Positions 12,616 through 40,630 of a DNA stretch of 64,000 bases are shown in pieces. How positions within the stretch are numbered: the first letter of the stretch is position 1; every line of letters starts with the position of its first letter. The DNA comes from Candidatus Hadarchaeota archaeon. GTDB taxonomy: Archaea > CAYQAE01 > CAYVLA01. The notes below the pieces were generated by a model. That model was not told the DNA's origin and ran no database searches. It saw only the letters and a program-made list of their open reading frames with translations. The DNA lies in assembly GCA_964621445.1 (NCBI GenBank), contig CAZUNO010000005.1, forward strand, positions 89,338-153,337. The letters are read 5' to 3'. A program made the position numbers and the translations under genes.

Positions 12616-15600
12616 CTAAATGAAGTCCCCAAGGCTCATCTGAGGGGCTTCCCGGGTCTCAATCGAATTGAAATTGGCCCTTATCATTGAAACCTGCAGA
12701 TTTGATTCCCCTCGGTCCATCTCCAGCGGCGAGGTTTCAACCAGATCCAATAGGGACGCAACATCGACCTCGATGGAACAGGGCACTACCTGACCCGAGC
12801 AGTCGCAGGTACCGCTGAGGGGAATTCTCCTATAGGTTTTCCCACACTTACCACACACGAACTCCCTGGTGCCTCCCCTCATGGCCGCAGTTTTGGCCAG
12901 CTCCGTTACCTCCAGGACCACGCTCCTGCAGATCTCCACCTCCAGATCCTGCCCGCAGTCCGGACAGCTGAAGTCCCTAAGATCCATGATGGTAAATGAT
13001 CGACCACAGCTCCCGCATACGTACTCCTCTAGTTCGTGCCCTAGAACGGGGTAGCTCTTGAGTTTCGGTTTTGGCTTTGGTTTGGGTTTTGGCTCCTTCT
13101 TGGACTTCCCTCCTCCTAGGGCATCCAGCAGGGTAAGCTGGGAGGAATCGGCGACTAGCTCATCGATGTCAAGCTCGAGAGCATCGAATATTCTACGAAC
13201 CGGGGGAAGTATCTGTCGCCTTATGTAATACTCGTGATCCAGGTTTATATCATGCTCTCGTACGTAGGTCGGGTCCTCTGACCTCTCAACCAGCAGGCCA
13301 TTCCCATGGGTTATCACAAAGGGAACTCTACTGCCCACCTCGGGAGCACTGGCTGGATCCCTTCTTCTCATCCTCTCACAGAGCTCCGCATGAGGCTGTC
13401 TTCCCTTGTATTCGCTGGGGCTCTTGCTCAGGGTTCTGGTTTGGATAAGCTTTTCCAGGGGTATTCTGTCCTCCCTGAGATCCTCGATAAGAGATTTCAT
13501 GTACTTCGATGCTTCCTCAATTTCACCCTTTCTGAGCAGGAGGTCAAGGACCTTCTTCATGGCCTCGGTGGCCTGGTTGCACCACTCTCTTCGAACCGTT
13601 TCCAGGCCCTTGACCTTCATGGGCGGTTCCTTGCCCTCCATGAACAGGGCGTACCTCTTCTTGGTAACGAATAATGCCCTCTGTGAAAAGGCCTCGTATT
13701 GCAGCTCCATGGGCTCAGGTAACGAGTCGCTGAGGATCTCCCCCATACGAGCTCCAAGGGAGGCCGCATCCTCTACAGGAATCCCTTTCCTATCAGTACC
13801 GACCGGGTTCATCTTAACGAAAACGCTGTCGGTGTCCCCGTAAACAACCTCCAGCTCCACCTCGGTCAGGCCCTCCCTATCCTCCACCTCATCTTCCAGG
13901 AAGGCCTTTCCATTTCCCAGGTATGCTCTCATCAATTCGGACTCGATGATCCTCTTAGTCTCGGTAATGGTCTCCCTACCGGTTCTGGTAACGGTGTTTG
14001 CTATGGTCAGCTCGTACATGCGAGACCGAATGTATCCAAAATAACCGTAGAAGCTGTTGAGGAGTATCTTTACAGCCAGCTGTGTCATGTCCAGGATCCT
14101 GTACTGGTCCCCCTTTTCGACCTTCTTGAGCTCCCCCTTTAGGAGGAGTCTCTTTTCCAGGAGCTCCTCCAGGATCCTGGGCACGATACCCTTGTACTTG
14201 TCCTTACTTACGAACTTCCCCTTATCCAAGGTCGAGAAGCAAATATTATTTGCGATCATGATCGTTGGATACAGGGATTTGTAATCCATCACGATTACGT
14301 TCTCCTGGAGGCCGCTCCTGGGCTCCAGAACATGACCTCCCTTCAGCCCCTCTTCCTTTCTAACCCGACGCCTCTTGGCGGTCTCCTCATCATCGGGCTT
14401 ACAGGGCATGACCCTCTCGTAACGACCAAGCTCTCTCAGGAGTAGATTATCAATCATGATGGACTGACCAGCCTCCACCAGGTCCTGCAAAAGGGTTCCG
14501 CTCACCTGGGCCAAGGCCACATGCTTGTCAAGAAGTCCCTTGGATAGGAGTATATCCAGGGGCAATATCGCGTCCTTTCTGGAATATCTAACCAGCTTTT
14601 CAAGCCCTTTGCCCTGGCTCTTCCAAAGGGTCGGTATCTCGGTATGGTGGACATCGACCTTGTCCTGACCCAGAATCTCCTTTGAAACCGCTCCCAGCCC
14701 GTAGCGCTTGAATGCGAAATCGCTCCTGACCAGGGGGAGAACATCCACAACCACCCGTCCGGTTATGCTGATGCTGGTCCTGTTCCCGAAACTACGATAA
14801 TAGCTATTCTTATCCGCCCTTCCCATCTTGGGTTTCACGCCCAGCTGCCTCATGCGGTCGATTATATAGGGAAAGTCGAACTGATTGGAGTTGTAGCCCA
14901 GGAGAACATCGGGGTCAAATCTCCTGAGTATATCAAGGAACCTCCCCAACATTTCCTCCTCGTTTTCAAAACCCTGAGCGCCGTCAATTGATACCGGGCG
15001 GCTGACCAGCACTAGATCCTCTCTGCCCTCAAAAGAGGGGTTGAAGGCCAGGCTGATCATGATGATGGGGTCCATCTCGGGCTTTGGCATCCCATCGCCG
15101 CTCTCGGCCAGGCACTCTATATCCAGGCAGAGGTACCTTAGGTCCGGGTGCTCCTCTATATCGCTGGAACCAAGGTTATTTGATATGGTCTCCAACTTGA
15201 TTTTGGTGTTGACCGTCTTAGTTCTAGTGGGGCGGTAGTTCTCAACCCGTATCCAGCTATTGGGCTTGAGGCCGGTGTCTATTAGAAACCTATTCTTGAA
15301 CAGGATGTCGGCCTCGTATATGGTTCCGTACTCCTTTACGGACTCCCTGAGATCCCTCACATTCTTGGGCTCCTGGGCCACGATGAGAAGCATCTGCTTC
15401 TTCTGCTTCTGGTATCCGAAAGGAGTGTACCTCTCCACGATCCTAACATCATTTATCTTCTTGAATCTCTGCTTGAGCTCCTCGCTCAGGGCCCCCAGCG
15501 AATCCCGGGAGTCCAGGCCGGGGTTTAAATAGAAATAGGGCTTGAAACCCCTGACGAAGACCGTGGTGCTCCGGTCGCTTTCATCCTTGCAGAATAGACG

Positions 15601-15672
15601 AATCACCGGGTCTCCGCTGCTTTCATATGAATAATCGGCCCCAAGCAGATAAAGGGGAATGGCATTAGTCAT
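12616..15672 (-). CDS. polB: Family B DNA polymerase with C-terminal double Cys4 extension
   Basis: Exo motifs DIE, YNSNQFD, YSRKD; pol motifs DYKSLYP, KILLNSFYG, YGDTDS; no intein; extra ~150-aa Cys-rich C-terminus ending in PIP-like QMSLGDFI. Confidence 0.96.
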   Translation of the reverse strand: MTNAIPLYLLGADYSYESSGDPVIRLFCKDESDRSTTVFVRGFKPYFYLNPGLDSRDSLGALSEELKQRFKKINDVRIVERYTPFGYQKQKKQMLLIVAQEPKNVRDLRESVKEYGTIYEADILFKNRFLIDTGLKPNSWIRVENYRPTRTKTVNTKIKLETISNNLGSSDIEEHPDLRYLCLDIECLAESGDGMPKPEMDPIIMISLAFNPSFEGREDLVLVSRPVSIDGAQGFENEEEMLGRFLDILRRFDPDVLLGYNSNQFDFPYIIDRMRQLGVKPKMGRADKNSYYRSFGNRTSISITGRVVVDVLPLVRSDFAFKRYGLGAVSKEILGQDKVDVHHTEIPTLWKSQGKGLEKLVRYSRKDAILPLDILLSKGLLDKHVALAQVSGTLLQDLVEAGQSIMIDNLLLRELGRYERVMPCKPDDEETAKRRRVRKEEGLKGGHVLEPRSGLQENVIVMDYKSLYPTIMIANNICFSTLDKGKFVSKDKYKGIVPRILEELLEKRLLLKGELKKVEKGDQYRILDMTQLAVKILLNSFYGYFGYIRSRMYELTIANTVTRTGRETITETKRIIESELMRAYLGNGKAFLEDEVEDREGLTEVELEVVYGDTDSVFVKMNPVGTDRKGIPVEDAASLGARMGEILSDSLPEPMELQYEAFSQRALFVTKKRYALFMEGKEPPMKVKGLETVRREWCNQATEAMKKVLDLLLRKGEIEEASKYMKSLIEDLREDRIPLEKLIQTRTLSKSPSEYKGRQPHAELCERMRRRDPASAPEVGSRVPFVITHGNGLLVERSEDPTYVREHDINLDHEYYIRRQILPPVRRIFDALELDIDELVADSSQLTLLDALGGGKSKKEPKPKPKPKPKLKSYPVLGHELEEYVCGSCGRSFTIMDLRDFSCPDCGQDLEVEICRSVVLEVTELAKTAAMRGGTREFVCGKCGKTYRRIPLSGTCDCSGQVVPCSIEVDVASLLDLVETSPLEMDRGESNLQVSMIRANFNSIETREAPQMSLGDFI

Positions 15673-15739: not shown

Positions 15740-16252
15740 TCACTGTTCCTGGGGCGAGGCCTCCTCTGCCTCGACCTCCTCCTCATCCAATTCAAATTCC
15801 CCCTCTTCCCATTCCATTTCCTCTCCTCCACCACGCTTGTCCTTAACGTAGAAAAGTCCTGCAATTACGAACATGATAATCCCAACCCAAAGCATCCACC
15901 TGAGCATGATCACTTCCTCGTTCTGTGATGGCTCCTCCCCGTATCTCATAAGGTCCCTGTACCATAATTCGGTGTACAGGCCGACCACTAGAAACACGGC
16001 GGCCAGGATTACCACGGCCTTGATGAACCCGAAAGAACCCTCGGCTCCCTCCGAGACAACGTCGGTGTCTGGAAGCCCGGATATGGCCTGTTTGACATGC
16101 TCCTTCTCCACCATATCGGCTTCCGACATCTCGGCTGCCTTTTCGGAGTCCTTCTCTATCCTCCTAAGGACCTTATCGATCTCCGCCGCGTTTCCGGGGA
16201 TTTTCTCCCTCCTCGATTCCAAAAATTCCTTAGCTCCAGTACTCCATTCCAT
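15740..16252 (-). CDS. Two-TM membrane protein with PCP_red-like N-terminal helical domain and acidic tail
   Basis: MEWSTGAKEFL...KIP...E..A...VEKEHVKQA pattern; two hydrophobic helices; Glu-rich C-terminus. Confidence 0.6.
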   Translation of the reverse strand: MEWSTGAKEFLESRREKIPGNAAEIDKVLRRIEKDSEKAAEMSEADMVEKEHVKQAISGLPDTDVVSEGAEGSFGFIKAVVILAAVFLVVGLYTELWYRDLMRYGEEPSQNEEVIMLRWMLWVGIIMFVIAGLFYVKDKRGGGEEMEWEEGEFELDEEEVEAEEASPQEQ

Positions 16253-16342
16253 GGATGGTTCCCCGCATTCAGGTTACTTGAACAAAGCAGACTCGACCCC
16301 CAACCCATATAAATCTATTACGGGGAAATGAGTTTTTCGGAC

Positions 16343-19060
16343 CTAGGCCTCTGCCCGCTGGGTATCATCCACTTCCCTTTCCGCCCCATCTCGGATCACC
16401 ATTGAACCCAACATGAGTTCATCAATCTCCGATACGAAAACCGGTGAAAGGTCTTTCATATCCCTCACGAAGAAAATACGACCCCCTCCTATGTCGGCGA
16501 TCTGTTGGGCCAGCCGCGGATTATACCACTTTGACTCCCCATCCTCGTCCACATCCCCGATACATACCACGGAGATGGTTATCCCGTACTTGGCGGTCAT
16601 CCTGGCACATCTGCGTGCATACTCGGCGGCGAATCTTTTCGGCTTAGGATGAGTGGCATCGCCATCCGTTAGCAGTATGACCTGCTTCCTACGTTCCGAA
16701 ACGACTTCCGGGTCATTGGAGCCCGGCTCCATATCCTTAAGGTCGCCAACCAATAGGTCCAGTGACCTCCTCAACCCGGCAGCGATGTTGGTTCCACCCT
16801 TTGGTAGCAAATTCGCCACCTCGGCAAGGGTCGTGTTTCGATCGGACCCCAAATCTGTGACCTCGGTGGAAAGGTCCCTGAAACCAACCACACCTACCCG
16901 ATTACCGTATCTCTCCGCTATAAGATTAAGCACCACTATGGCCTGTTTCGCGTACCATAGCTTATCTCCGTAGGCCATGCTCCCTGAGAGGTCCAGCACC
17001 ACCACTATATCCACGTCCCCCTCTGCCATGAGTTCACGCTTTTCCGGTTCCCTTTCGTAGACATAGAGGTTATCCCTTTGGACATCATCCCGACCATCAC
17101 GTATGGCATCCCTGATGGTTTCTCGAATGGCTATGTCCTTGTAGGAATCCCCTCTCCTATACTTTCGAACGTCCTTGATCTCCGAGCTGGGCAAGGGAGG
17201 AAGCTCCTGGTAGGAGACTCCGCGAAGCGCTGCATCAATCCTTTTCATAATCTGGTCATCGACATCGGACACCAGGAACCTCGATATCCTATGGGTAAAT
17301 GAGATTTTATCCTCTGAGCCATTGATCAGCCCCTCCCTCTCCAGATGCTTCCTCAAAGCACCCACGGGATCACCCTTTCCCTGTTTCGGTTCCGGTCTGT
17401 TTAGAATAGAGGCCAGTGCCGGGTACTGATCGGTCTTTTCCTTTGCTAGATCGGCGATATCCTCAAGAGATGCTCTGGTTCCCGATCTTTCCGCGTAAAG
17501 CTCGTCCCTTGCAGTCGAAATCTCCTTTACGGCCCTGCCTAGGTCATCGCCCTCTAATTCGCCGGAAAGCAACGAGGATTTCTCCGAGATATTGTTATAG
17601 AGACTGGTCAGGGGTTCCCAATCGATGCCAAACCTCTCTCTAATGCTTGACATCACCCTTGAATCCCTGATCCAACCACCCATATCCAGGTAATCAAACA
17701 CAAAGGTAGCTAGAAAGGTCATCGCCCCAAAAAGGCCCACCAGAAAAAAAGGCGATATGTTGTCGAAGGCGTGAGGAGGATCCATACCATTACCGGGTCC
17801 CGCGGAACCTTCCCCGGTCTGGCCTAGAACCCTTCCAGTGTAATTCTCGACCACCCAGGTTCGATTCTCATCCTGGACATAGAGACTGTCCGTATCCCCG
17901 TCATATGTTATCGTCGCGTTACTGCCCGGGTCGACCCCGGTCTCCTCGCTTATCTCACCCATTATGGAGTCCGGTATGTCGGTAACCTCCGTTCCCCCAC
18001 TGACATTGGTACCATCCGCGACCTCCCTCAAGTCGTCGGATAGATTGGGCATGTCCTCGTCGATATTGCCGGGATTTGCATTGTCTACTATTAGAAAGGC
18101 CACCAGGCCAAACACCAGTATGGCGCAGGCCACCATGATCGGGGTTCTATACCGTAAGGACCCGCCTGGTCGCTTTGATGAGGACTCCTTCTCCTCCTTG
18201 GCTCCTAGGAAAACATCCTGGAGAAGATTTCTAGCCACTTCCCGGTTACTCTTCCAGGAAAAGGGGTTGACCTTTATGGAATGGGACAGGGATGAATTAC
18301 ACGAGTTATACAGGTCTCTCTCCTCCGGTTCCCGTCCCGAGAGCTCGCTGCTGGCTGACACGTTTTCCACAAACCTCACGCCGGCCCTGGTGCTTGCTCC
18401 CTGTTCTAGATCGGGATGCCTTCTGCTTCTTTCCAGAAATCTCGAGGCGATATCGGGAACGTAATCCGGAACTGGAGCCAGAGTTTGGGACTTGGATCGT
18501 ATGTATTCCTTTTCGAGATCACGGTCCTCTGGATAGGAAACGGTCACTACCTGGAAATGATCCAATAGTTTGGGATCGATTTGATCTGATGTGGCCAGGG
18601 CAATGATCCTTGCATCCACATCAACCTTATACTGGAAGATCTCAATCATCCCGGTGTCCAAGAAATCCGCCAGGGCCATCGTTAGCTTCCGTGGCATGTT
18701 GTCGATATCCCTGAACAGTATCGCTCCCCCGTCGCTCTTCTCGATAATTCCGGGTATGTAGGATCTATCGTCCGAGAATCCGTATTCCTTGAGGGCCAGG
18801 GGATCAACATCTCCAAACAAGTCCACATTTCTCAGATTGGACGAGCAGTTAACCCTATCTGTATCTAGATCCAGCACTTCCAGGATAATGGAGGCCACGT
18901 TCTCCTTATCCACTCCCCGGGGACCGATGATCAGGATTGGTCTTCCAGTTAGGACGGATGATATGAGGTCAGCCTTCTCCCTTTCCGAAAGCAAGGTCTC
19001 GGATAGCTTCTCCTCCATCTCTCTGATCAGGGTCCTATTATCCTTCACCTGAGATACCAA
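16343..19060 (-). CDS. Fusion of degenerate AAA+ domain, TM, external loop, TM and vWA domain
   Basis: Altered Walker A GPRGVDKE and Walker B LFRDID; two TM helices; vWA MIDAS DLSGS, GGTNIAAGL, LLTDG. Confidence 0.88.
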   Translation of the reverse strand: MVSQVKDNRTLIREMEEKLSETLLSEREKADLISSVLTGRPILIIGPRGVDKENVASIILEVLDLDTDRVNCSSNLRNVDLFGDVDPLALKEYGFSDDRSYIPGIIEKSDGGAILFRDIDNMPRKLTMALADFLDTGMIEIFQYKVDVDARIIALATSDQIDPKLLDHFQVVTVSYPEDRDLEKEYIRSKSQTLAPVPDYVPDIASRFLERSRRHPDLEQGASTRAGVRFVENVSASSELSGREPEERDLYNSCNSSLSHSIKVNPFSWKSNREVARNLLQDVFLGAKEEKESSSKRPGGSLRYRTPIMVACAILVFGLVAFLIVDNANPGNIDEDMPNLSDDLREVADGTNVSGGTEVTDIPDSIMGEISEETGVDPGSNATITYDGDTDSLYVQDENRTWVVENYTGRVLGQTGEGSAGPGNGMDPPHAFDNISPFFLVGLFGAMTFLATFVFDYLDMGGWIRDSRVMSSIRERFGIDWEPLTSLYNNISEKSSLLSGELEGDDLGRAVKEISTARDELYAERSGTRASLEDIADLAKEKTDQYPALASILNRPEPKQGKGDPVGALRKHLEREGLINGSEDKISFTHRISRFLVSDVDDQIMKRIDAALRGVSYQELPPLPSSEIKDVRKYRRGDSYKDIAIRETIRDAIRDGRDDVQRDNLYVYEREPEKRELMAEGDVDIVVVLDLSGSMAYGDKLWYAKQAIVVLNLIAERYGNRVGVVGFRDLSTEVTDLGSDRNTTLAEVANLLPKGGTNIAAGLRRSLDLLVGDLKDMEPGSNDPEVVSERRKQVILLTDGDATHPKPKRFAAEYARRCARMTAKYGITISVVCIGDVDEDGESKWYNPRLAQQIADIGGGRIFFVRDMKDLSPVFVSEIDELMLGSMVIRDGAEREVDDTQRAEA

Positions 19061-20073
19061 CCATAATCATGTAGAACTTCGAGGGCCTGTTTCTTTACCT
19101 CCGAATGGGGGGCTCCGGTAGCCGCGGGGAGAACCGAACAAAGGGCATCATATAGATCCTTAACCTGGGCAGAGCCGTTTCCGGAGATAAGCGAGTAGGC
19201 CTGGGTCTTCTCGAAGATCTTTATGCTCGCCCTCACGCTGGCCGGTTGGAAATTTGTGTTATTACCCCTTGTTTTTTGGGTTGAGGATGCAATAGCTTCC
19301 ATCATCTCCTCACCCACCTTAACTCCAAGATCCTTTGCCTCATTCTTTATTATCGTTGCCTCGTCCTGGATCCTATTGGGATAGGACATCTCTATAACGT
19401 CAACTCTATCAAGTAGTACGTCGATGAGGGGAACATCGCCAGACTCGGCGGAAAGATTGGATGTGGCTATCATAAGGAAATCCGCCGGGTAGTCCAGATC
19501 GTAACCCGAGATGGTGGCCTTCCCTTCATCAAGGACCTGCAAAAAGGCCCCCTGCAACCTCTGGGGCATCTTCGCAATCTCGTCGCAGAAGACTATCCCG
19601 TTATTGCCCTTGAGCAGTTTTCCCGGAGTGAAAGCCCGATAATCATCGGGGGAGTATTTGAAAGCCGCAACTGGATCTATGTCTCCAAGGAGGTCCTGGA
19701 CGGTTAGGTCAGGGCTTCCCTGAATTCTCACGAATCTCTCGAGGCCACTGACATTTCTTGTAGGGGCTCTCTCCGGGTCCATTTCCGAATCGCCGTATCG
19801 GCTCCTACAAACTGGACACGCAATCTGATCGGGCTGACAGTTGAACTCGCATCCCTCTATCACATTGATAGGACCCAGCATCTTTGCCATCTCCTTGGCT
19901 AGCGTGGTCTTTCCACAACCCCTTGGCCCCTTGAGGATGACATCGTGTCCGGCCACAATTGAGGCCAGGAACTGCTTCTTCGCTTCCCTCTGTCCAATTA
20001 TCCGGGATAGCGGATCCTTTCCCTCTCTCACCGACTTGATTAGGATTTCTCGGATCTCGGTTTTGACATCCAT
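19045..20073 (-). CDS. ChlI/MoxR-like AAA+ ATPase with Cys4 insertion
   Basis: IIGQ, Walker A GPRGCGKT, Walker B VFCDE, LLDR Arg finger, SVR sensor 2; CEFNC...CPVC insert. Confidence 0.92.
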   Translation of the reverse strand: MDVKTEIREILIKSVREGKDPLSRIIGQREAKKQFLASIVAGHDVILKGPRGCGKTTLAKEMAKMLGPINVIEGCEFNCQPDQIACPVCRSRYGDSEMDPERAPTRNVSGLERFVRIQGSPDLTVQDLLGDIDPVAAFKYSPDDYRAFTPGKLLKGNNGIVFCDEIAKMPQRLQGAFLQVLDEGKATISGYDLDYPADFLMIATSNLSAESGDVPLIDVLLDRVDVIEMSYPNRIQDEATIIKNEAKDLGVKVGEEMMEAIASSTQKTRGNNTNFQPASVRASIKIFEKTQAYSLISGNGSAQVKDLYDALCSVLPAATGAPHSEVKKQALEVLHDYGWYLR

Positions 20074-20123
20074 GACCTCAACACACCCCTTCGTGTTAGT
20101 CTTCCTACCGTTTAACTCTATTC

Positions 20124-20140
20124 TATTTCATTCTGAAATA
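20124..20140. promoter_or_regulatory. Palindromic candidate operator in an AT-rich divergent promoter region
   Basis: tatttca-ttc-tgaaata perfect 7-bp inverted repeat ~50 bp upstream of the AAA gene. Confidence 0.35.
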
Positions 20141-20332
20141 ACTGAAAGGCGAAATAATGGGGCTTCAAATGTCTAGGATTTCCCTTTTCTTATTTAATAA
20201 CATTTTATGAAAATTGGTATGTCATAATTACTGCAATATAATAATACTAATTATATATTCCACCATTACCTTGACCGTGAAACGGCGTTTTTCGCCTACA
20301 TAAGATTAATAAGGTAAATCATCAGCGCTCCA

Positions 20333-21154
20333 ATGCTCACAATTCAGGGAAATCCAGGGGGCAACGCAGGCTTGGATGAATATATATTATTCTCGAAAAA
20401 CGGAGAGGACTCCTTCGAGGTCAAGATTCCCTTTTCTTCCGACTCCTTGAACCAGGTCTCGGATCTACTGACCAAGCAAGGATTCCTAGTGGAAAGAAAG
20501 GAGATGGATAGGCTTCAGACCGAATTAGTCGAACTCAAGTCCATGCTAAGTGAAGTAAGGGAAGAAAACGAAAGCCTCGGTCGACTTCTCCAAGATATCC
20601 TCAAAGGACTGGACAGCACCAAGTCCCAAGGCGCTAACCGGGAGACCAAATCGGGACTGACCGATACGGGAACTGAGAAGATGAGAATCCCGGATGATAA
20701 GATCTCCATGCTCCCCTCCCCGGATACAAAGGCATTCAAGCTCATAAGCAAGCTGGCAAAGGAGCACATGGATGAGAAATTTACCACCTCCGGCCTAAGC
20801 CTGTACGAAAAGCGAGTTTTCTCCCTTCTAGTCAAGAGATATGAGTTCGCGAGAAGGGTGGGTAAGAAGGGTCGCAGCGTCGTATATACCTTCCACCCTC
20901 CGGCCCTTGAATCCCTATGCAAGGAGCTCGGCGGAAGGGCCATGATCTCAGTTCGTTCCCGGGTGAGATCGAAATCGGTGGTGGACTTCCTGGAAAAGAT
21001 GAAGGATAGATATCCCCATTTCTGTTACAGAGAGGTTCCCAGCCAAACCGGGTACAAGCAACATGAGCTTCTCTTCTCCGACAAGTCGGTCAGAAAATCG
21101 GTGATGGGCAACCTGACCCGGACCTTCGGGCCGAACAGCGTCAAGATCCTGTAG
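20333..21154 (+). CDS. Hypothetical protein: coiled coil, probable winged helix and basic C-terminal domain
   Basis: Heptad segment LQTELVELKSMLSEVREENESL; wing-like RVGKKGRSVVYTF. Confidence 0.6.
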   Translation: MLTIQGNPGGNAGLDEYILFSKNGEDSFEVKIPFSSDSLNQVSDLLTKQGFLVERKEMDRLQTELVELKSMLSEVREENESLGRLLQDILKGLDSTKSQGANRETKSGLTDTGTEKMRIPDDKISMLPSPDTKAFKLISKLAKEHMDEKFTTSGLSLYEKRVFSLLVKRYEFARRVGKKGRSVVYTFHPPALESLCKELGGRAMISVRSRVRSKSVVDFLEKMKDRYPHFCYREVPSQTGYKQHELLFSDKSVRKSVMGNLTRTFGPNSVKIL

Positions 21155-22121: not shown

Positions 22122-23609
22122 TTGAGAAGAACCCTTCCCATACTGCTCTTGATCCTTATATTCTCCCCGATTTCGGTCTTTTCTTTCGCCGAAGTTGAGA
22201 GAATGCCCTACTTCGTCAAATCCCAAGGCGGGAAGACGATTTACTGGAACGAATCCTATAGGATCCTCGCCGGCGACCTGGAACTCCAGCTGGTAACCGG
22301 TACAGCACGGGTATCCGACCAGTTTGGTGACCGGATGCTGGAATGGGATCCGGAAATAATATCCATAAAGGTCGAAGACGAGGAGGTAATGCGTAGAAAG
22401 ACGCTTGAATTCATCTCCGACGATCCCCTCCTCAACATGCCTTTCCTGGGGATAGGCGGCGTGGTGTCCCCAACAAATGAGATAATGGGACTAACCCCTT
22501 CGGGGGCACCCGCATCCAATTTGGAGTGGGGAGAGAAAGGAGAGGAAGGTGTTGTGTCCTGGTCTACCTCGTATCAATACAAGGCCGGGGATAGAATATC
22601 ATGGCTTAATAGGTCCTTCCTGCTGAATGCGAGCCTTAAGATCGATTGTGAATTCACGGTTGTGGATGCATATCAGGCCATGGAACAGAAGGTAATGGTC
22701 ACCAACGGGGACGAATCCCAGTCCCTTCCCTTCCCCCTGGAGACCGCGTTCTGCCTGGGCTCCTCATTTGAGGAAAAGGCCTTGAGCCTGCCAAATATGA
22801 CCCTTGAACCCGACAGGTACTTCACCTATCCGGCCACCGACCTTCCCGTCCAGTGGTATGACCCCGCCTCAGATTCCTACAGCCTGCCGGGATCCATGTG
22901 GTCGGAGGATGATCTTCCCGGACTTCTATATACCGAGTTTGATCTTCAAAACCGCGACTGGTTCGGCGCAGTAACCGAAACCCAGATATCCTATCAAATG
23001 CAGGGAGGCGCGGGGGTGAGGGTGCTTTCAAGCCAGGGATTTGAAGATTTCCGCCCCTATTCCATGTTCATCTCCGGCGAGGATGACCACATGGTATTCG
23101 GGTTCAAACCGTACAGCCAAGCCGGGAGTTACGATGATTTCACACCCATGACCGTTGATCCGGGTGAACAAGCATCACTTGAACTCCTTTGGTTTTTCCC
23201 GGAGTCCGAGGGGGAAACCATGGGACTGTCCGACCTCGAGGAGTTCGCCAACCAGTCCATCTCAGTTTCGCAATTCGTCCAATCGGAGAAGGACGCGGAA
23301 GAGCTCTTCAAGGAGGCTAATTCCCTGGCCGCTGATGGCCAGATGGTCCAAGCGGTCGACAAGGCCACCTCGGCCTTCCTCACCTACCAGAATCTGGGAA
23401 AGATTTCTGACACCATGCTGGAGGAGAGCCGCAACATCAATACCACGATAACAACCTGGAGGAACTCAGCATCCGACCCCGAACCCCACCCAGAAAAGGG
23501 GGATAGGAGCGCCATGTTCATCACCCTGGGGATCTTCCTGGTTCTATTAATCTCGATTTCGTTCTGGGTCTATGTCATCAAGCCACGCCGTGCACAGGGA
23601 AATGATTAA
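22122..23609 (+). CDS. Secreted, C-terminally membrane-anchored hypothetical protein
   Basis: Signal peptide, several N-x-S/T sequons, helical stalk, C-terminal TM followed by KPRR. Confidence 0.7.
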   Translation: MRRTLPILLLILIFSPISVFSFAEVERMPYFVKSQGGKTIYWNESYRILAGDLELQLVTGTARVSDQFGDRMLEWDPEIISIKVEDEEVMRRKTLEFISDDPLLNMPFLGIGGVVSPTNEIMGLTPSGAPASNLEWGEKGEEGVVSWSTSYQYKAGDRISWLNRSFLLNASLKIDCEFTVVDAYQAMEQKVMVTNGDESQSLPFPLETAFCLGSSFEEKALSLPNMTLEPDRYFTYPATDLPVQWYDPASDSYSLPGSMWSEDDLPGLLYTEFDLQNRDWFGAVTETQISYQMQGGAGVRVLSSQGFEDFRPYSMFISGEDDHMVFGFKPYSQAGSYDDFTPMTVDPGEQASLELLWFFPESEGETMGLSDLEEFANQSISVSQFVQSEKDAEELFKEANSLAADGQMVQAVDKATSAFLTYQNLGKISDTMLEESRNINTTITTWRNSASDPEPHPEKGDRSAMFITLGIFLVLLISISFWVYVIKPRRAQGND

Positions 23610-26221: not shown

Positions 26222-27403
26222 ATGAGGGTACTTATCGTCACCTGGGTCTTCCCAACCCACGGTGGGGTGTTCAACTTCCTGGAGAAGGTCATATCCGGCC
26301 TTTCCGGGGGAGAACACGAGTTCGAAGTGGTGGCCGTGGAGCCAAGTCCCGAAGCACGTAGGGAGTGCAACTATCTACCCGAACACCAGATACACACGGT
26401 TTCCCAGGTAGCCCTCCCAAGTCCCCTTTCCTTCCCTCTCATCGGAATGATCTTGACCGTCGTGGGAATCGCCAGGAGGGGGAATTTCGATGTTATCTTC
26501 TGCCAGGACCCCATGTTTGCGGGCATCCCATCCCTAATCGCGTCCGGGATAACTGGCATCCCCCTGCTGGTGGCCGACCACGGGCTGGTCAAGAATTTCA
26601 AGAAGGAGGAATATTGGAGAAATTTCGGTTTTCAACTCATCATCATATGGAGGATAATATCCCTAATGGTGATGAAACCGGTGTTTAAGATCTCGTCTGG
26701 GATCTATGCCCCCGGCGAAGATGTGGCCAACGCCGTTCGCGGGCTATTCGGGAGGGAACTAACGGGGAAGATCACGGTCTTTCCAATAGGCATCGATACG
26801 GAGCGCTATCAGCCCGAAGCTGACCTTGGAAGTGAGATTAGACGGGGTCTATCCATCAAAAAAGGTCCTGTGGCCACTTTTGTAGGACGCCTACACATCG
26901 AAAGTGGGCTAGATACACTGATAGAGGCCGCCTCCGGGTTTGATGAAGATACCCTACCCATTTTTCTGATCGTGGGGGACGGGAATCTAAAAACGGGCTA
27001 TGAACGGCTGGCCAGGGAGAAAAGCGGCGGTAATTTCATCTTCCTGGGATACAGAGAGGATGTAAACCCATACCTGGCGGCCTCGGACATCTTCGTTTTC
27101 CCCAAGATCTTCGCAGGGGGTCACTCCGTTGCCCTCAGGGAGGCTATGGCAGCATCTCTGCCCTGTATAGCAACTTCAGGAGTCGATTCACACGATGAGA
27201 TAATCGATGACGGTAAGAACGGAATTCTGGTCAGCCCCGGCGCGAGCTGGGAACTCCATAAGGCCCTTAAGGACCTCCTTGATAATCCATCCCTCAGGGC
27301 CAAACTGGGAACCGCCGCCAGGAACTACGTAATTGAGAGGTACGGCATGAAGATCTTCCTGGACAACGTGAAGCGTCTATTGTCATCACTCGAGGAGAGA
27401 TGA
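26222..27403 (+). CDS. GT4 glycosyltransferase
   Basis: FVGRL, VGDG, FLGYR, EAMAA motifs. Confidence 0.9.
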   Translation: MRVLIVTWVFPTHGGVFNFLEKVISGLSGGEHEFEVVAVEPSPEARRECNYLPEHQIHTVSQVALPSPLSFPLIGMILTVVGIARRGNFDVIFCQDPMFAGIPSLIASGITGIPLLVADHGLVKNFKKEEYWRNFGFQLIIIWRIISLMVMKPVFKISSGIYAPGEDVANAVRGLFGRELTGKITVFPIGIDTERYQPEADLGSEIRRGLSIKKGPVATFVGRLHIESGLDTLIEAASGFDEDTLPIFLIVGDGNLKTGYERLAREKSGGNFIFLGYREDVNPYLAASDIFVFPKIFAGGHSVALREAMAASLPCIATSGVDSHDEIIDDGKNGILVSPGASWELHKALKDLLDNPSLRAKLGTAARNYVIERYGMKIFLDNVKRLLSSLEER

Positions 27404-28579
27404 ATACCCATCCACTAGTCTTCCGGCCATTTTTCTCCAGTTATACCTGTTTTGGGCATCCAAGGCAGCCCGGCTCATCCTATCGTAGATATCATCATCC
27501 ATAATGGTTCTAATCGAGTCGGCCACCTCCTCCACTTTCTCCGGGTCCACTGCGAGGCCATTTCCCTCCGCTTTTACTATCCTGCTTTTCTCCCCCAGGT
27601 CGGAGACCAGAATTGGTTTTCCGGCCGCAATCGACTCGAAAAGCTTGTTGGGAACGGTTAGCACGTTATTAGGATCGTTCCCCTTGTATAGAGCAAACAG
27701 AAGATCGCTGGCCAGATCATAGGCGGGAACCAGGGTGGGATCGATCTCTCCTCCAAATATGACCCGGTCATCGACCTCAAGCTTCCCTACCATGCTCCGT
27801 AATTTCCCCTCGATGGGGCCATATCCCCCTATAAACAAGTTAACTCCCTCCAGCATTGAAACCGCCCGGACGGCCTCCTCCAAGCCCCGGTTGGGAAACA
27901 GACCACCGATGTAAACCATTAGAAACTCCTCGTCAGATGCCAGTGATTCGCGAAGCCCCTCTACCTCCTCCTCCGGACATGAGAAGGGCTCGAAACAATT
28001 CATCACCGTTATCACCCTCTTACCCCCGCTCTCCCGGGCAATACCGGCTATGGGCGTGCTGGTGGCCAGAACCATGTCCGCCCTCCTGATGAGAAACGGC
28101 TCCAGGAGCCTCAGTATGCGGACCAGAGGTCGGGGAGCGAAGGTTGATATGAAATCCGGGTAGGACTCGTGCATATCGTAGACCAGCCTGATGGATTTCA
28201 ATCTTGTAACGATTAGTCCGGGGACCATGGTGTCCATGTCGTGGCAGTGAACCGCATCCAGGTCGCTTCCAAGGCCAGCAAGGATCAGGTGGATATAGAA
28301 AAGAATAAAGCCGGGTACCAGTGACAGAAACTCCCCGTAGTCAGCCCGGATCGGGTGACGAATGACCCTCACCCCATCAAATTCCTCCTCAAGGGGCAGC
28401 TTGCATTCCCTATCCCAGGCCTGAACGCATACCTGGTGACCGTTATCAACTAGGCTCCTTGCTTCCCGGAGGACCCTGAGGTCGGGCTTAAACGGATTGG
28501 CCAGGAACATCGATATCCTAGACACTGGGAAATAGTGAAATGGCCACAAGGTAAAAGCTTTCCCCCAGGCAGAGATCAT
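27386..28579 (-). CDS. GT4 glycosyltransferase
   Basis: PDLRVLREA, HCHD, YDMHE, PNKLFE..AAGKP; true start may lie slightly downstream. Confidence 0.9.
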   Translation of the reverse strand: MISAWGKAFTLWPFHYFPVSRISMFLANPFKPDLRVLREARSLVDNGHQVCVQAWDRECKLPLEEEFDGVRVIRHPIRADYGEFLSLVPGFILFYIHLILAGLGSDLDAVHCHDMDTMVPGLIVTRLKSIRLVYDMHESYPDFISTFAPRPLVRILRLLEPFLIRRADMVLATSTPIAGIARESGGKRVITVMNCFEPFSCPEEEVEGLRESLASDEEFLMVYIGGLFPNRGLEEAVRAVSMLEGVNLFIGGYGPIEGKLRSMVGKLEVDDRVIFGGEIDPTLVPAYDLASDLLFALYKGNDPNNVLTVPNKLFESIAAGKPILVSDLGEKSRIVKAEGNGLAVDPEKVEEVADSIRTIMDDDIYDRMSRAALDAQNRYNWRKMAGRLVDGYSSLLE

Positions 28580-28632
28580 TTATCATGGAGGACCTTATTG
28601 TCTTTCCTCTAGCAGCCATGAAGTGTTCGTGA

Positions 28633-29778
28633 ATGAAGATTCTCATCGTGCCGGCCATTGATTGGTTTACGGCCCTGGAGAACAGGGTTCACCACCTAGT
28701 TAGATGCTGGCAGGAGAATCACGAGATACACGTCGTGCACCTGCCCCTGGGAGGGGAACCGCTTAGAGAGCCTGGTGGAGAGGTCATGCATACCTTCTCG
28801 ACGGCCAGGACCAGCAGCCTGCTAACCTATTACATTATGAACTTCATTCCCCAGGTGCTTCAGATAGTCCGGCTAATCAGGTCCAACAACATAGACCTGG
28901 TGGTTACCACCAACCTATCAGCCGGCACCGCGGCCATACTTGCGGCAAGGATATGTAATGTGCCCTCGATATTCGACTACTGTGATTACCTCCCGGCATT
29001 CTCTCATTATGCCGGCGTGTCATCAATCCTGCAACCCATATTGGGGTTCATCGGCGAACTGCTGACCATACTCAACTTCAGGCTCTCGGAGGTTACCGTG
29101 GTCATCGGTAAAAGGCTGATGGAGCATGCCCAGGACTACTCCGACGCCGTTCTCGAGGTCCCGAACGGGGTCGATGAGCGGAGATTTAGGGTCAAAGAGG
29201 AGTGGCGCCCAGGGGATAACCCGGTTCTGGGATATGTAGGAATACTTGAATTCTTCGTTAACCTGGGAACGGTCATCGACGCGCTCAAGTACCTTGATCG
29301 TTTTCGCCTGGTGGTAGTGGGCTCAGGTCGGGAGATGGGTAACCTGGTAGAATACGCCCAAAGGAGCGGGGTGAAGGAGAGGGTAAAGTTCGTGGGAAGG
29401 GTTCCTTACCAGAGGGTAGGGCGTTGGATCCAATCCATGGACGCGTGTCTGCTCCCTTTCTCCAGTAGCGACCTGACGGAATCCGCCCTGCCCCTGAAGG
29501 TACACGAGTACGCAGTTTGTCGCAGGCCGGTCATTGCCTCACCCCTTTTCGAGGTGGTTAGGATGTTTGGCGAGCTCCTACTATACGCCCGGGGACCCAG
29601 GGAGATCGCTTCGAAGGTGCAAAATCTTCTAAGCAATAGGACTGAAACTAGAAGAAGGATAAGGAGGGCCTACATCCGAGCTGCCGTCACCTACAGATGG
29701 AGCCGGTTCGGATCCCGATACGAAAAAGCATTTTCCAGGGCCCTGGGCGGGGGTGAGGCGTATAGACATGAACATTAA
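28633..29778 (+). CDS. GT4 glycosyltransferase
   Basis: VPNGVD, GYVG, PLKVHEY motifs. Confidence 0.88.
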   Translation: MKILIVPAIDWFTALENRVHHLVRCWQENHEIHVVHLPLGGEPLREPGGEVMHTFSTARTSSLLTYYIMNFIPQVLQIVRLIRSNNIDLVVTTNLSAGTAAILAARICNVPSIFDYCDYLPAFSHYAGVSSILQPILGFIGELLTILNFRLSEVTVVIGKRLMEHAQDYSDAVLEVPNGVDERRFRVKEEWRPGDNPVLGYVGILEFFVNLGTVIDALKYLDRFRLVVVGSGREMGNLVEYAQRSGVKERVKFVGRVPYQRVGRWIQSMDACLLPFSSSDLTESALPLKVHEYAVCRRPVIASPLFEVVRMFGELLLYARGPREIASKVQNLLSNRTETRRRIRRAYIRAAVTYRWSRFGSRYEKAFSRALGGGEAYRHEH

Positions 29779-31561
29779 TCCTGTTCGGGGAAATGGCCTA
29801 AGCCTAGGGCTGCTCCTAATACTGATATTGGCCCTCTCGGCAACTACCAGGCTTTACTTTCTCACCACCTGGGATCAAATTCCCACCAGTGACCCTTATC
29901 ACTTCATCGGATGGACCTCGGGCGTTGACCAATCAAGTCATCTTGATTTCCCTGGATCCGAGGACAGGGCCTACGGACAATATCCGGACGGTTACCCAAT
30001 TCTACTTCAATTTCTCTCCACCACGGGCGATATCTCGCTGGTCCCCCTATCCAAGTTCCTTCCGGTCATCGTCGGATCGATGTGCACCCTGCCCGTCTTC
30101 CTCGTGTTCCGGAAATTGACGCGGAGGTCCCTCTATCAGCTCGCCGGGACGGTGATGGTGGTCTTCTCCCTGGCATTTCTCAAATACACATCGGTCTCGA
30201 TCCCCAATATGATGGGCCTCTATCTTTTCTGTCTCGCCGCATGGATTGCCCTCAGATTGGATAGGCAGGGAAAGAGGATGTTAGCCATGCTCGGCTTCTT
30301 GGTGCTAGCGGTATCACGCATTCATTACCTTTCCCTGGTCTGTATCGGGGTCCTCCTGGCCATAGTCATTTCCAGGAAGCTGATGGTCAGGGCATCCGGG
30401 CAGGAGTTCGACCCCCGACGTATGGCCTTTATTCTCATAGTGGCCCTTGTGGCGGGAATCTTGGCCTGGACCGCCGCGTACCGAGTGATGTACATGCTCT
30501 ACGGAATAGACATCACCAGCCAGCCGCCGGCCAGGTTGAGCCTGGTTCTAAGCTTCCTGGGCTATCCCTTGATATTCGGGGTTTTACAGATACTTTTCGT
30601 ACCCCTGGGCTTAATTCACCTGGCAAAGGACTATATCTCCAGGCACTTCACGAGCGAGGATGGAAATCTCAACCTCGATCCAGTTCTGATCTTGGCCCTG
30701 TTTTTGGTGTTCCTCCTATTTGCCTCTGGTTTCCTGAAGGTGGAGTACTACCCCTTTAGATTCAATTGCTTTCTGATCCTTCCCCTGGTCATGGTATCGA
30801 TCCTTGGCCTTCTGTTGGCCAGGGGGCTCTTGATGGATTCTCCGCTCCGTGCTTTTGCGTGGATGGTGATCCCCCTCACCGTTTTGATGGTCATCATTCA
30901 GCCCCTGGCGGCCTCGATCATTCCATTTGACGATGGAGAACCCTTCCTGCCCTGGGAACAGGAATACGGTGAAACCGAGATGCCGGCATTGAGAAGCTGG
31001 ATGGAGGAAAAGCTGCTTTGCACGGAGTTCAATCGGAGCGGTGGCCCTGAGTCTAAATCCCTTCCCCGCCGGGAGATGGTCATGGCCGATTGGGTTCGGT
31101 CAAGGGCCCTGAACGCCTTCGGGTTCGACAGCGTCCACATACACTGGTGGTTTTTCCAGGGTTGGTACGACCTCCAGAGGGAGCCCTTCAGGTATAGAAG
31201 CCTTGACATCTATGCCGGGAACTCAAGTCAAGCTCTGGATAGACTCGCCGGGCTTTACCTGAGGAAGGCCACCGGGAGCACCGGTGACTGGTATTATCAT
31301 TACAAGTACATATACACCAGCAAGTGGCTGGGCGAGGTCATGGTCAATGACTTCGGTCTACAGCCTAACTTCACCAAGTTCGACAACTATGATGGCTCGC
31401 TACTCTATGACTGGAGGCGTAGCTCTTCCCAGGGTGACAGGGTTATCGCCGAAAGCGAAAGGGCTCTTGGAGCACCTTACATGCTGCCACCATTCGACCG
31501 GCTTTACTCCTCACCAGGGGTCGGGATTTACCTATTCCCGGATTTGAAAAGGGTCATCTAG
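29753..31561 (+). CDS. Multi-pass membrane protein, GT-C-like
   Basis: SDPYH after TM1, YPDGY, ~11 TM helices, PFRF, soluble C-terminal domain; lies in the GT cluster. Confidence 0.55.
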   Translation: MRRIDMNINPVRGNGLSLGLLLILILALSATTRLYFLTTWDQIPTSDPYHFIGWTSGVDQSSHLDFPGSEDRAYGQYPDGYPILLQFLSTTGDISLVPLSKFLPVIVGSMCTLPVFLVFRKLTRRSLYQLAGTVMVVFSLAFLKYTSVSIPNMMGLYLFCLAAWIALRLDRQGKRMLAMLGFLVLAVSRIHYLSLVCIGVLLAIVISRKLMVRASGQEFDPRRMAFILIVALVAGILAWTAAYRVMYMLYGIDITSQPPARLSLVLSFLGYPLIFGVLQILFVPLGLIHLAKDYISRHFTSEDGNLNLDPVLILALFLVFLLFASGFLKVEYYPFRFNCFLILPLVMVSILGLLLARGLLMDSPLRAFAWMVIPLTVLMVIIQPLAASIIPFDDGEPFLPWEQEYGETEMPALRSWMEEKLLCTEFNRSGGPESKSLPRREMVMADWVRSRALNAFGFDSVHIHWWFFQGWYDLQREPFRYRSLDIYAGNSSQALDRLAGLYLRKATGSTGDWYYHYKYIYTSKWLGEVMVNDFGLQPNFTKFDNYDGSLLYDWRRSSSQGDRVIAESERALGAPYMLPPFDRLYSSPGVGIYLFPDLKRVI

Positions 31562-31565
31562 AAAC

Positions 31566-32558
31566 TTAACGGAGGTCCATAGCCAACAGTCCCTTAAACG
31601 CCCCCGTGATAAGGAAAAATACCGGTAATAAGAGATCCTTGAACCAGGAAAGCTCCACCACCTCTATCCTCCATAGTCGGACTCTCCCTCCCCCATTTTC
31701 CACCGAAGCCAGCAGCTTTCCGTCCTTTGAGAAGGCCATGTCATATGGATCGTCAAATCCCGCTTCTCCCGGCACGCCGCTAAATCCCCCCAGGTGATCC
31801 CCATTTGAGTTGAAGAAATATATCCTGTCGGCTCCAAAATCTGCGACCGCCACCATGCCATTTTCTGACACATCTATGCCCACTGGTCGGGTAAATCTAA
31901 GCCTGCTCTGTATATCCCATATGGTGGAGTTGAAGGAGAAATCGGGATTGAAAATTTGAACCCTCCTCACATATCCCTCGGGTTCCAGATATGCGTCAAC
32001 CACCAGAAGCCGGCCGTGGGAATCGAAGGACAGGTCCATAGGGCCATCGAAATCCCCTGCCTCGGTTCCCCATTGGCCGAATTCCTTTATGAAGCAGGGG
32101 CACGGTCCCAGGATCTGGATTCTCCTGTTCATGGAGTCGGCAACCGCAGTAAGACCACCCTTCACGTCTATCCCCCAGGGAACCCTAAACTCGGCTTCAC
32201 CCGAACCCTCCAAGCCCAGGGTTCCATATTCATCCAGCTCCGCGTCAAGGATCAGCACCCTGTGATTCCCTGTATCGGCTACCCAGATTCTGCCCTGATC
32301 ATCAATGTCAATGCCGCGTGGATGTCTCAGGCCCCCCGAATAGCTTGAATTCAATGAAAGGTCCTGATTGAGTATTATCACCCGGTCATTTCCGGTATCG
32401 GACACTACCCAGAGCCCATCCGGGTGATTGGTGATGCAGGTCGGTGAATTGAGAACGATTTCAGAGGTGGCAACCGGAACTAGGGTAAAATTCATCGTAC
32501 CTGAAACGGTGGCCAAAAACCCCAGTGATATCAGGGCCAAGAGCAGATATCTAGTCAT
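31566..32558 (-). CDS. Secreted NHL-repeat beta-propeller with C-terminal hydrophobic anchor
   Basis: Repeated P-x-G-I-D...V-A-D-T-G-N-x-R-V units; signal peptide. Confidence 0.88.
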   Translation of the reverse strand: MTRYLLLALISLGFLATVSGTMNFTLVPVATSEIVLNSPTCITNHPDGLWVVSDTGNDRVIILNQDLSLNSSYSGGLRHPRGIDIDDQGRIWVADTGNHRVLILDAELDEYGTLGLEGSGEAEFRVPWGIDVKGGLTAVADSMNRRIQILGPCPCFIKEFGQWGTEAGDFDGPMDLSFDSHGRLLVVDAYLEPEGYVRRVQIFNPDFSFNSTIWDIQSRLRFTRPVGIDVSENGMVAVADFGADRIYFFNSNGDHLGGFSGVPGEAGFDDPYDMAFSKDGKLLASVENGGGRVRLWRIEVVELSWFKDLLLPVFFLITGAFKGLLAMDLR

Positions 32559-34248: not shown

Positions 34249-34327
34249 TTCCCATCATCAAACGGGCTTGATCGAAAACCGCTGCTAAGTATTTAAGAGG
34301 AAACCAACAATCGGGCCTGCAACGCTC

Positions 34328-40439: not shown

Positions 40440-40630
40440 TCACCGTTTTCCTCTCAGCGGTGAAACCGAAATGCGATCAATAGCCTTGGTTCTGGATTCG
40501 GGAAGCATGTACCCCTTTCGGTCCAGTATCAGTCCTAAGACCATTTCGTTCGCCAGGGATATGACCCGGAAGACCGGGGACCCAACGGAGGAAGACGACC
40601 GTAAGCCACTCATCCAAATGAAAGGGCTTG
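40440..40630 (+). ncRNA. Candidate structured 5' leader RNA of nrdD
   Basis: Consecutive stems: tcaccgt/gcggtga, cgaaatg/catttcg enclosing ctgga/tccag, ccgg/ccgg, acgg/ccgt, aagcc/ggctt. Confidence 0.35.

Follow-up and report, generated by a model that had tools for sequence, protein, structure and literature searches.

The best-described counterparts of the system analysed here are machines in which an AAA+ ATPase works with a protein bearing a domain of the von Willebrand factor A type (vWA domain). In the class I chelatase motors (ChlI/ChlD, BchI/BchD and CobS/CobT) an active AAA+ subunit is combined with a larger subunit, in which a degenerate AAA+ domain is joined through a linker to a vWA domain with a metal ion-dependent adhesion site (MIDAS). 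ChlD and CobT are soluble proteins, as is NorD of the NorQ/NorD pair. The vWA domain of ChlD bridges the motor to ChlH (PMC6604950), and NorQ/NorD inserts FeB into cNOR, for which an intact vWA domain and client carboxylates are needed (PMC9976466). A related layout is encoded at positions 15740..20073 of the window, by which we mean the whole stretch of 64,000 nucleotides (nt) analysed, taken from contig CAZUNO010000005.1 of an uncultured archaeon, Candidatus Hadarchaeota. Three co-oriented open reading frames (ORFs) lie here on the minus strand, at the same coordinates as those reported in an earlier note made from the letters of the DNA. The second of them is a ChlD-like subunit equipped with a transmembrane (TM) hairpin. 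As judged from sequence comparison, the locus is a lineage-restricted, membrane-anchored variant of a widespread and little-studied family of Cys4-ChlI-like/vWA systems whose other members are soluble, so that its earlier description as a strong candidate for an undescribed system was overstated. The features of the first two genes are as follows, with lengths in amino acids (aa).

19045..20073, minus strand: gene 1 (342 aa), ChlI-like/MoxR-clade AAA+ ATPase with all ATPase motifs and a Cys4 knuckle (from translation, Pfam, PDB matches and tree)
16343..19060, minus strand: gene 2 (905 aa from TTG 19060; 901 aa if from GTG 19048), ChlD-like subunit with a predicted membrane hairpin
18191..18952, minus strand: degenerate AAA+ core and lid, gene 2 aa 37-290 (alignment, model, Foldseek)
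18068..18157, minus strand: TM helix 1, gene 2 aa 302-331 (hydropathy 2.9; model helix 305-325; 10/10 homologues)
17759..18067, minus strand: predicted extracellular loop, gene 2 aa 332-434 (sequon and charge count, model)
17687..17758, minus strand: TM helix 2, gene 2 aa 435-458 (hydropathy; model helix 437-457)
17021..17686, minus strand: conserved linker, predicted to be cytoplasmic, gene 2 aa 459-680 (column identity, model, PF05762)
16406..17020, minus strand: vWA domain with intact MIDAS, gene 2 aa 681-885 (Pfam, alignment, Foldseek)

Gene 1 is by its motifs a catalytically intact AAA+ ATPase, with predicted activity: its translation contains a Walker A motif, GPRGCGKT, and a Walker B motif, IVFCDE. 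The Pfam cut-offs of Mg_chelatase (PF01078; 60.4 bits, cut-off 20.3), AAA_3 (50.2, cut-off 27) and AAA_5 (46.9, cut-off 22) are all exceeded, and the nearest solved structures are those of ChlI (6l8d, 8osf and 1g8p; E about 1e-10). After the Walker A helix comes a Cys4 motif, CxxxC-x6-CxxC (aa 75-89), which aligns with a Cys-free segment that comes after the Walker A helix in ChlI. The protein carries CEFNCQPDQIACPVC and RIQGSPDLTVQDLLGDIDP, that is, the Cys4 motif together with the GSPDL...GDIDP signature of the soluble Cys4-AAA+/vWA family discussed below, in the alignment of which the four Cys are at least 90% conserved. The Cys4 'insert' is not peculiar to this locus; it is the distinguishing mark of a wide clade of ChlI-like ATPases in archaea and bacteria.

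The start of gene 2 lies within gene 1, either at TTG 19060, giving a 16-nt overlap, or at GTG 19048, giving a GTGA start/stop overlap. The GTG is the likelier start, and the database's own call for the protein is 901 aa. With either arrangement genes 1 and 2 are, to judge from their layout, translationally coupled. A programmed frameshift joining the two was considered and is not indicated, each gene having its own AAA+ domain and start.

From its N-terminus onwards, the gene 2 protein comprises a degenerate AAA+ domain, a TM segment, a sequon-rich acidic loop, a second TM segment, a conserved linker and, last, a MIDAS-intact vWA domain. Its Walker A reads GPRGVDKE, and it lacks both the Walker B Glu and the Cys4 segment. 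The degenerate Walker A, in the general form GPxGxxK[E/D], and the replacement of the Walker B Glu are seen in 10/10 aligned sequences of the gene 2 family, as are both TM segments and the MIDAS residues. The latter are DLSGS (D690-x-S692-x-S694), T757 and D799, and D690, S692, T757 and D799 are invariant across 21 sequences. The vWA domain is recognised by Pfam as VWA_2 (52.6 bits) and VWA (40.6 bits), and VWA_CoxE (PF05762) matches aa 627-767 (E 1.1e-8), from the end of the linker, which corresponds to the N-terminal region of VWA_CoxE, into the vWA domain. The alignments establish gene 2 as a paralogue that is ATPase-dead by its motifs, retains an intact MIDAS and has a TM-loop-TM in place of the charged linker of its soluble relatives.

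An AlphaFold2 model of gene 2, based on a 21-row alignment (mean predicted local distance difference test score, pLDDT, 76; predicted TM-score, pTM, 0.46), contains a confident AAA+ domain (pLDDT about 90), a confident vWA domain and helices at the two hydrophobic segments. The linker is modelled as helical and includes, at about aa 565-633, a helix-helix-helix-strand-strand element; its mean column identity is 0.73-0.78. Foldseek superposes the N-terminal domain on NorQ/CbbQ (TMt 0.73-0.79) and the vWA domain on TEM8, BatB (3ibs, 4jdu) and NorD-type vWA domains. The proposal that an active ChlI-like subunit is accompanied here by an inactive ChlD-like AAA+-vWA subunit is thus borne out by motifs, Pfam matches and alignment, and that of a membrane hairpin in the 905-aa protein by hydropathy, by the 10/10 homologues and by the helices of the model.

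The cytoplasmic ends of both TM segments are flanked by K/R residues, in the stretch before TM helix 1 and in the juxtamembrane stretch after TM helix 2. The loop between them is 96-123 aa long across the 10 sequences. In the window copy it has a net charge of -20 and five N-x-S/T sequons; its net charge is -7 to -20 in 8/10 sequences and +2 in the other two, and sequons occur at 4.8 per 100 aa in the 10 loops against 0.42 elsewhere, an 11-fold difference. Because of the K/R flanks and this sequon enrichment, the AAA+ and vWA domains are placed in the cytoplasm and the loop outside, an arrangement that fits a predicted N-in/C-in hairpin with a glycosylated loop. The loop is the least conserved part of gene 2 (its columns have a mean identity of 0.49, those of the cytoplasmic domains 0.72-0.84), is without Cys except for a single one in 1/10 sequences, and matches no known ligand-binding family. 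Its core (aa 345-411) is modelled as a small alpha/beta element with pLDDT 70-81. Taken together, the loop looks like a glycosylated spacer rather than a sensor.

For gene 2, a word-index search of 5.8 billion proteins returned, in addition to the window's own protein, nine full-length homologues from other assemblies (894-921 aa, 52-61% identity), in which the whole architecture is kept. Logan contigs from two metagenome runs tile the ORF at identities of at least 99%, one piece bridging the gene 1/gene 2 junction through TM helix 1 and another spanning the loop and TM helix 2 into the vWA domain; these two runs may be the source sample and hence not independent, and it is the homologues that provide independent evidence. 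An assembly chimera, which had been named as the possible undoing of the 905-aa ORF, is rejected in view of this tiling and of the nine homologues, which keep the architecture with its TM segments.

The GTDB phylum consists of five species genomes, and the gene 1/gene 2 module is present in 4/4 genomes of one family and not in the fifth. The locus is single-copy and forms part of a family-wide syntenic housekeeping block. When 1.84 billion representatives were searched exhaustively by HMMER with the gene 2 family profile, one full-length cluster (1581 bits) and two fragments were recovered, after which scores drop to 242 bits or less, and the AAA+-TM hairpin-vWA architecture was present in none of the 149 other best representatives listed. 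Likewise, no hairpin version was found beyond the family in the 401 sampled archaeal genomes, in the phylum of genome G300 or among 49 word-search matches. The suggestion in the earlier note of searching archaea for the AAA-TM-TM-vWA architecture was productive, then, to the extent of nine homologues, with none outside the family in the genomes sampled. No TM-bearing ChlD-like protein was found described in the literature, most subscription journals lying outside the coverage. On this evidence the hairpin is a local invention of the gene 2 family.

The next-best matches of the profile, after the gene 2 family itself, are soluble proteins of 684-805 aa, in which an intact Cys4-bearing AAA+ domain and a vWA domain are joined by a long linker, either charged or helical. 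These soluble Cys4-AAA+/vWA proteins, which occur in archaea and some bacteria, are the nearest relatives of the locus by sequence and by tree. Of the 401 sampled archaeal genomes, 51 match their profile at E 1e-40 or better, many of them small (0.7-1.3 Mb among the 51; 0.6-1.3 Mb overall), and the names that they bear at source are only 'AAA family ATPase', 'Mg-chelatase subunit ChlI' and 'hypothetical protein'. Three layouts are seen: a fused protein of about 700-850 aa; adjacent genes for an AAA protein and a linker-vWA protein; and an AAA gene followed by an AAA-vWA gene, as in genomes G011 and G034. Shared with the present locus are the Cys4 ATPase, the GSPDL...GDIDP signature, the linker and vWA domain and, in G011/G034, the pairing of an I-like with a D-like gene. 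However, the soluble D-like subunit has Walker A and Cys4 intact and no TM segment, whereas gene 2 has lost the first two and gained two TM helices. No TM-grade segment was present in the 149 representatives, the 49 word-search matches, 45 full-length metagenome D-like genes or the archaeal loci examined.

Trees were obtained by quick maximum-likelihood searches, and the placements are provisional. Gene 1 groups with the first-gene ATPase of the G011/G034 two-gene systems (Shimodaira-Hasegawa-like approximate likelihood ratio test, SH-aLRT, 94). The pseudo-AAA+ domain of gene 2 sits on the D-like (second-gene) side of a 95%-supported split, and its vWA domain joins the D-like clade at 99%, as a long-branched sister. 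Given these three placements, the gene 1/gene 2 family would provisionally be a derived form of the soluble two-gene I-like/D-like system, with a D-like subunit from which the ATPase motifs and the Cys4 knuckle would have disappeared and whose linker would have acquired a hairpin.

Some further variety within this wider family was encountered. In two large genomes of another phylum (loci L045, G300:C4, and L046, G320:C29), a Cys4-AAA ORF ending in ...REAKKKQA overlaps a linker-vWA ORF in another frame. Intein domains, PF14890 and PF14528, lie within the ATPase of several Cys4-AAA+ relatives about 755-800 aa long (P0198-P0203, P0210, P0211 and P0039). About 20 representatives of 840-970 aa (a subset of P0045-P0154) have no P-loop; in them an uncharacterised N-terminal domain of around 300 aa is combined with a segment resembling an AAA lid, with a long coiled linker and with a closely related vWA domain. 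This arrangement, too, is undescribed and falls in the same vWA clade.

Metagenome contigs scanned with the soluble D-like clade yielded 72 loci, of which 45 have a full-length gene; the loci were clustered by their ORFs. A recurrent gene order is Cys4-AAA, MinD/CooC-like ATPase, CdhC-like, AAA-vWA and CdhA-like, often with FwdB-like and FwdD-like genes. Where enough flanking sequence was available, a CooC-like ATPase lies no more than three genes upstream of the D-like gene in 22 of 33 loci and a CdhA-like gene no more than four genes downstream in 15 of 29. The CooC-like protein carries a G-x-G-C-x-C stretch (a CxC motif), the metal site of CooC. Other soluble members adjoin genes for small ferredoxins and SufC-like and ferritin-like proteins, and the G011/G034 pairs lie near PCP_red-CGGC, ScdA_N, FeS_assembly_P and COX1-like genes. 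As far as gene content indicates, the theme of these contexts is metal-centre enzymes. Hidden Markov models of the N-terminal domain of gene 3 (see below) and of true PCP_red, run against all fetched neighbourhoods, did not reveal PCP_red as a recurrent neighbour of the wider family, and for this reason the PCP_red-CGGC protein near the G011/G034 pair is probably coincidental.

In the metagenome cluster at L070:4745-17222, and in about 30 further loci (L066-L121), the CdhC-like protein scores 337 bits (TIGR00316 cut-off 356) and the CdhA-like protein 489 against a cut-off of 781; the cluster also encodes small proteins, an FwdB-like protein (349 bits, over the cut-off), an FwdD-like protein and a CdhE-N-terminal-like iron-sulphur protein. 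Its gene content looks like that of a divergent enzyme of the carbon monoxide dehydrogenase/acetyl-CoA synthase (CODH/ACS) type with its own AAA+/vWA maturation pair. Within the same literature coverage, no AAA+/vWA factor was found described in CODH/ACS clusters.

CobN/ChlH (PF02514) has no match in the window's genome (G000, 96.2% complete) or in the three other family genomes (G001-G003), the model having given matches in 5 known genomes used as a control; this genome-wide check, recommended with the original claim that an H subunit is missing, agrees with that claim. No tetrapyrrole gene lies in the 64-kb window. Against NCBIfam, gene 1 scores 72 bits with TIGR02442 (cut-off 779.45), 58.8 with TIGR02030 (466.95) and 54.6 with TIGR02031 (499.55), while gene 2 reaches 43.8 bits with TIGR02442 (same cut-off), values 7-18 times under the cut-offs. 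Besides these scores and the missing H/CobN subunit, the Cys4 knuckle on the ATPase and the TM-loop-TM in the D-like linker set the locus apart from the chelatase motors. Judged by the CobN/ChlH search, the gene content of the window and the NCBIfam scores, the pair is not a tetrapyrrole chelatase.

Other described pairs are comparable in part. With NorQ/NorD, CbbQ/CbbO and CoxD/CoxE the locus shares the NorQ/CbbQ-like fold of its pseudo-AAA+ domain, the VWA_CoxE match before and into the vWA domain and, putatively, a mechanism. However, vWA proteins of the NorD, CbbO and CoxE types have no AAA+ domain, are soluble and have the client gene next door, whereas here a pseudo-AAA+ domain is fused to the vWA domain, the protein is membrane-anchored and no client gene is adjacent. 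In BatA/BatB the vWA partner of a MoxR-clade ATPase is likewise held by TM helices, and the BatB structures 3ibs and 4jdu are those matched by the gene 2 vWA fold. Bat proteins, for their part, are without an AAA+ domain and have their TM helices at the termini; the BatA model NF047508 scores 23 bits against a cut-off of 380. The statement that the known versions of such subunits are soluble accordingly holds for ChlD, CobT and NorD but not for the vWA partners of MoxR ATPases as a whole, since membrane-anchored ones of the BatA/BatB type exist.

We put at about even the chance that genes 1 and 2 together form a membrane-tethered, two-subunit AAA+/vWA remodelling machine of the ChlI/ChlD (MoxR-clade) kind, likely engaged in metal-centre maturation. 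By analogy with ChlI-ChlD, CobS-CobT, NorQ-NorD and CbbQ-CbbO, the gene 1 ATPase ring would dock on the pseudo-AAA+/vWA subunit, the MIDAS of gene 2 would grip a carboxylate of the client, and ATP hydrolysis by gene 1 would remodel that client, the whole machine being tethered at the inner face of the cytoplasmic membrane. Since the adaptor would be fixed in the membrane, the likeliest client is a protein bound to the membrane or associated with it. The task is most likely to insert or mature a metal centre, in a client that may itself contain metal, because the closest soluble relatives occur in metal-centre contexts (CooC with CODH/ACS-like genes, ferredoxins, Suf-like and ferritin-like proteins).

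Several points weigh against the proposal. No client emerged from the analysis, and topology, glycosylation, complex and ATPase activity are predictions. The window's genome is without CdhC and has only one Prismane-family gene (547 aa); on both counts the CODH/ACS context of the relatives is not directly transferable, and the client here must differ. The vWA tree puts the gene 2 family as sister to all soluble D-like proteins, not within the CODH-linked ones, and the metagenome D-like loci are not independent of one another. The window copy has LLDHF, with His, where 9/10 homologues have LLDRF with a putative arginine finger. Finally, the neighbours in the window are housekeeping genes (family B DNA polymerase, threonyl-tRNA synthetase, topoisomerase VI-B, M28 peptidase, glycosyltransferases), which offer no functional hint.

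The same anchored pair might instead remodel the membrane or envelope without any metal centre, in the assembly, extraction or reorganisation of membrane complexes (S-layer or glycoprotein biogenesis, secretion, division) after the manner of RavA-ViaA or Bat. We consider this unlikely, though it deserves some weight. The membrane anchor itself would suit such a role, and so would the resemblance of the vWA fold, in Foldseek, to BatB and to an 'aerotolerance-related membrane protein'; a surface-glycan cluster, an anchored surface protein 2 kb away and FtsZ 12 kb away are also suggestive, and one study predicts archaeal MoxR/vWA pairs to act in secretion or membrane-remodelling systems (PMC5898192). 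However, the glycan, surface and FtsZ genes belong to the family-wide syntenic block and lie outside the operon, the contexts of the closest soluble relatives speak for metal enzymes, and the BatA model falls far short of its cut-off. A transmembrane sensor, in which the external loop, alone or with gene 3, would control the cytoplasmic ATPase and MIDAS in integrin-like fashion, appears improbable to us. A single polypeptide does join the outside loop to the cytoplasmic domains, and the alpha/beta core of the loop includes a few conserved positions (D387, N399 and N406-Y-T), but these are mostly sequons, the loop is otherwise poorly conserved, variable in length and unmatched among ligand-binding families, and no output domain or signalling partner is encoded nearby. 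We think it just as improbable that the glycosylated loop and the two-TM gene 3 product couple the cell surface to the cytoplasmic AAA+ ring and MIDAS, or the reverse, as an integrin-like, ATP-powered device. The earlier idea of a signalling machine therefore gains no support from a loop that is the least conserved and most sequon-packed part of the protein.

That the pair is a true class I chelatase motor serving a metal-chelating subunit that has escaped recognition, such as one for a nickel or cobalt tetrapyrrole, strikes us as very improbable. The best matches of gene 1 are indeed to ChlI, and TIGR02442, named 'putative cobaltochelatase', is the best NCBIfam match of both genes, but the scores are far under the family cut-offs (72 vs 779, 59 vs 467 and 55 vs 500), CobN/ChlH is missing from 4/4 family genomes despite working controls, the window is devoid of tetrapyrrole genes, and relatives occur in many genomes of only 0.6-1.3 Mb. 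An anti-virus or conflict system has, in our view, a similarly slight probability. MoxR-vWA modules reportedly occur in such systems (PMC7159879), and gene 1 gives partial PADLOC AAA+ matches, for example to DolB (E 2e-12). These matches cover the generic AAA+ core only, however, genes 2 and 3 have no specific match, and the locus is single-copy, free of effector domains and set in a conserved housekeeping block in 4/4 family genomes.

A ChlI/ChlD- or MoxR-vWA-type machine built into the membrane would extend the repertoire of the soluble chaperones to membrane-bound clients. The combination of a dead ATPase fused to the adaptor, a separate active ATPase and predicted translational coupling would make a compact system in which to study the work of an AAA+ ring and vWA domain fixed to the bilayer. 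The soluble relatives constitute a broad, unstudied family of Cys4 ChlI-like ATPases with vWA partners and may matter more widely; in particular, the branch flanked by genes for a CooC-like nickel-insertion ATPase and for divergent CODH/ACS-like proteins provides a candidate for a new factor in the maturation of the CODH/ACS-like enzymes.

The remaining features of the locus surround the pair:

16253..16342, minus strand: 90-nt spacer separating gene 2 from gene 3, containing a TATA-like TTTATATG (sequence reading)
15740..16252, minus strand: gene 3 (170 aa), two-TM protein (translation, family conservation, model, Foldseek)
20074..20332, no strand: A+T-rich divergent intergenic region 5' of gene 1; GAGGT precedes the ATG by 3 nt (sequence reading)

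Gene 3 encodes a three-helix N-terminal domain, predicted to be cytoplasmic, TM segments at aa 69-98 and 112-138 and an acidic C-terminal tail. Since the spacer with its TATA-like element separates it from gene 2, gene 3 may have a promoter of its own. As had been anticipated, it is conserved with the pair, being present in 4/4 family genomes and in 0/1 outside the family (the fifth genome of the phylum). Its family amounts to 21 clusters in the 5.8 billion proteins, all unnamed and 106-197 aa long. In 2/4 family genomes, genes 2 and 3 are separated by an FdhD gene. Because of this insertion, and because the region is syntenic family-wide, the adjacency of gene 3 constitutes weak evidence of partnership; that gene 3 is a functional membrane partner or adaptor of the pair is possible, at a little under even chances. 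FdhD was also considered as a hint of molybdo-enzyme maturation, an idea that was dropped as FdhD lies on another contig in the window's genome.

The N-terminal domain of gene 3 is weakly PCP_red-like. PF08369 (PCP_red) matches 3/4 members of the gene 3 family below its 32.5-bit cut-off (best E 0.0063) and does not match the window copy, and an hhalign comparison of the domain with a true PCP_red-CGGC protein gave a probability of 9.4%. Foldseek with the gene 3 model gave no match at E 0.001 or better, three PCP_red structures, 2kru (TMt 0.61), 2l09 and 2ynm_D, being among the top 50. Nothing relevant to PCP_red was found within the literature covered.

The genes adjoining the locus are those for family B DNA polymerase, which lies 3' of gene 3, threonyl-tRNA synthetase, a Pfam-less 273-aa protein and an M28 peptidase; no client enzyme gene is among them. 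The threonyl-tRNA synthetase is of the archaeal type, and the window also encodes FtsZ, topoisomerase VI-B, Hjc and Alba. The polymerase (12616-15672, minus strand) is extended at its C-terminus by about 140 aa, in which two CxxC...CxxC zinc-ribbon motifs occur (Pfam CpXC, E 5e-6). The 273-aa protein (20333-21154, plus strand) is divergent from gene 1 and is kept in 4/4 family loci. A little further on is the gene for a probable surface glycoprotein of 495 aa (22122-23609, plus strand), which has a signal peptide, a large ectodomain with sequons and a TM anchor at its C-terminus. The region 26222-35569 is probably a surface-glycan locus; it encodes three GT4-type glycosyltransferases, a flippase-like polysaccharide biosynthesis protein, an NHL-repeat protein and two large Pfam-less proteins. 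Two paralogues of NrdD, the anaerobic ribonucleotide reductase, follow 3 kb apart (35789-37810, minus strand, and 40628-42742, plus strand), one of them much nearer to the Pfam model than the other (650 against 348 bits).

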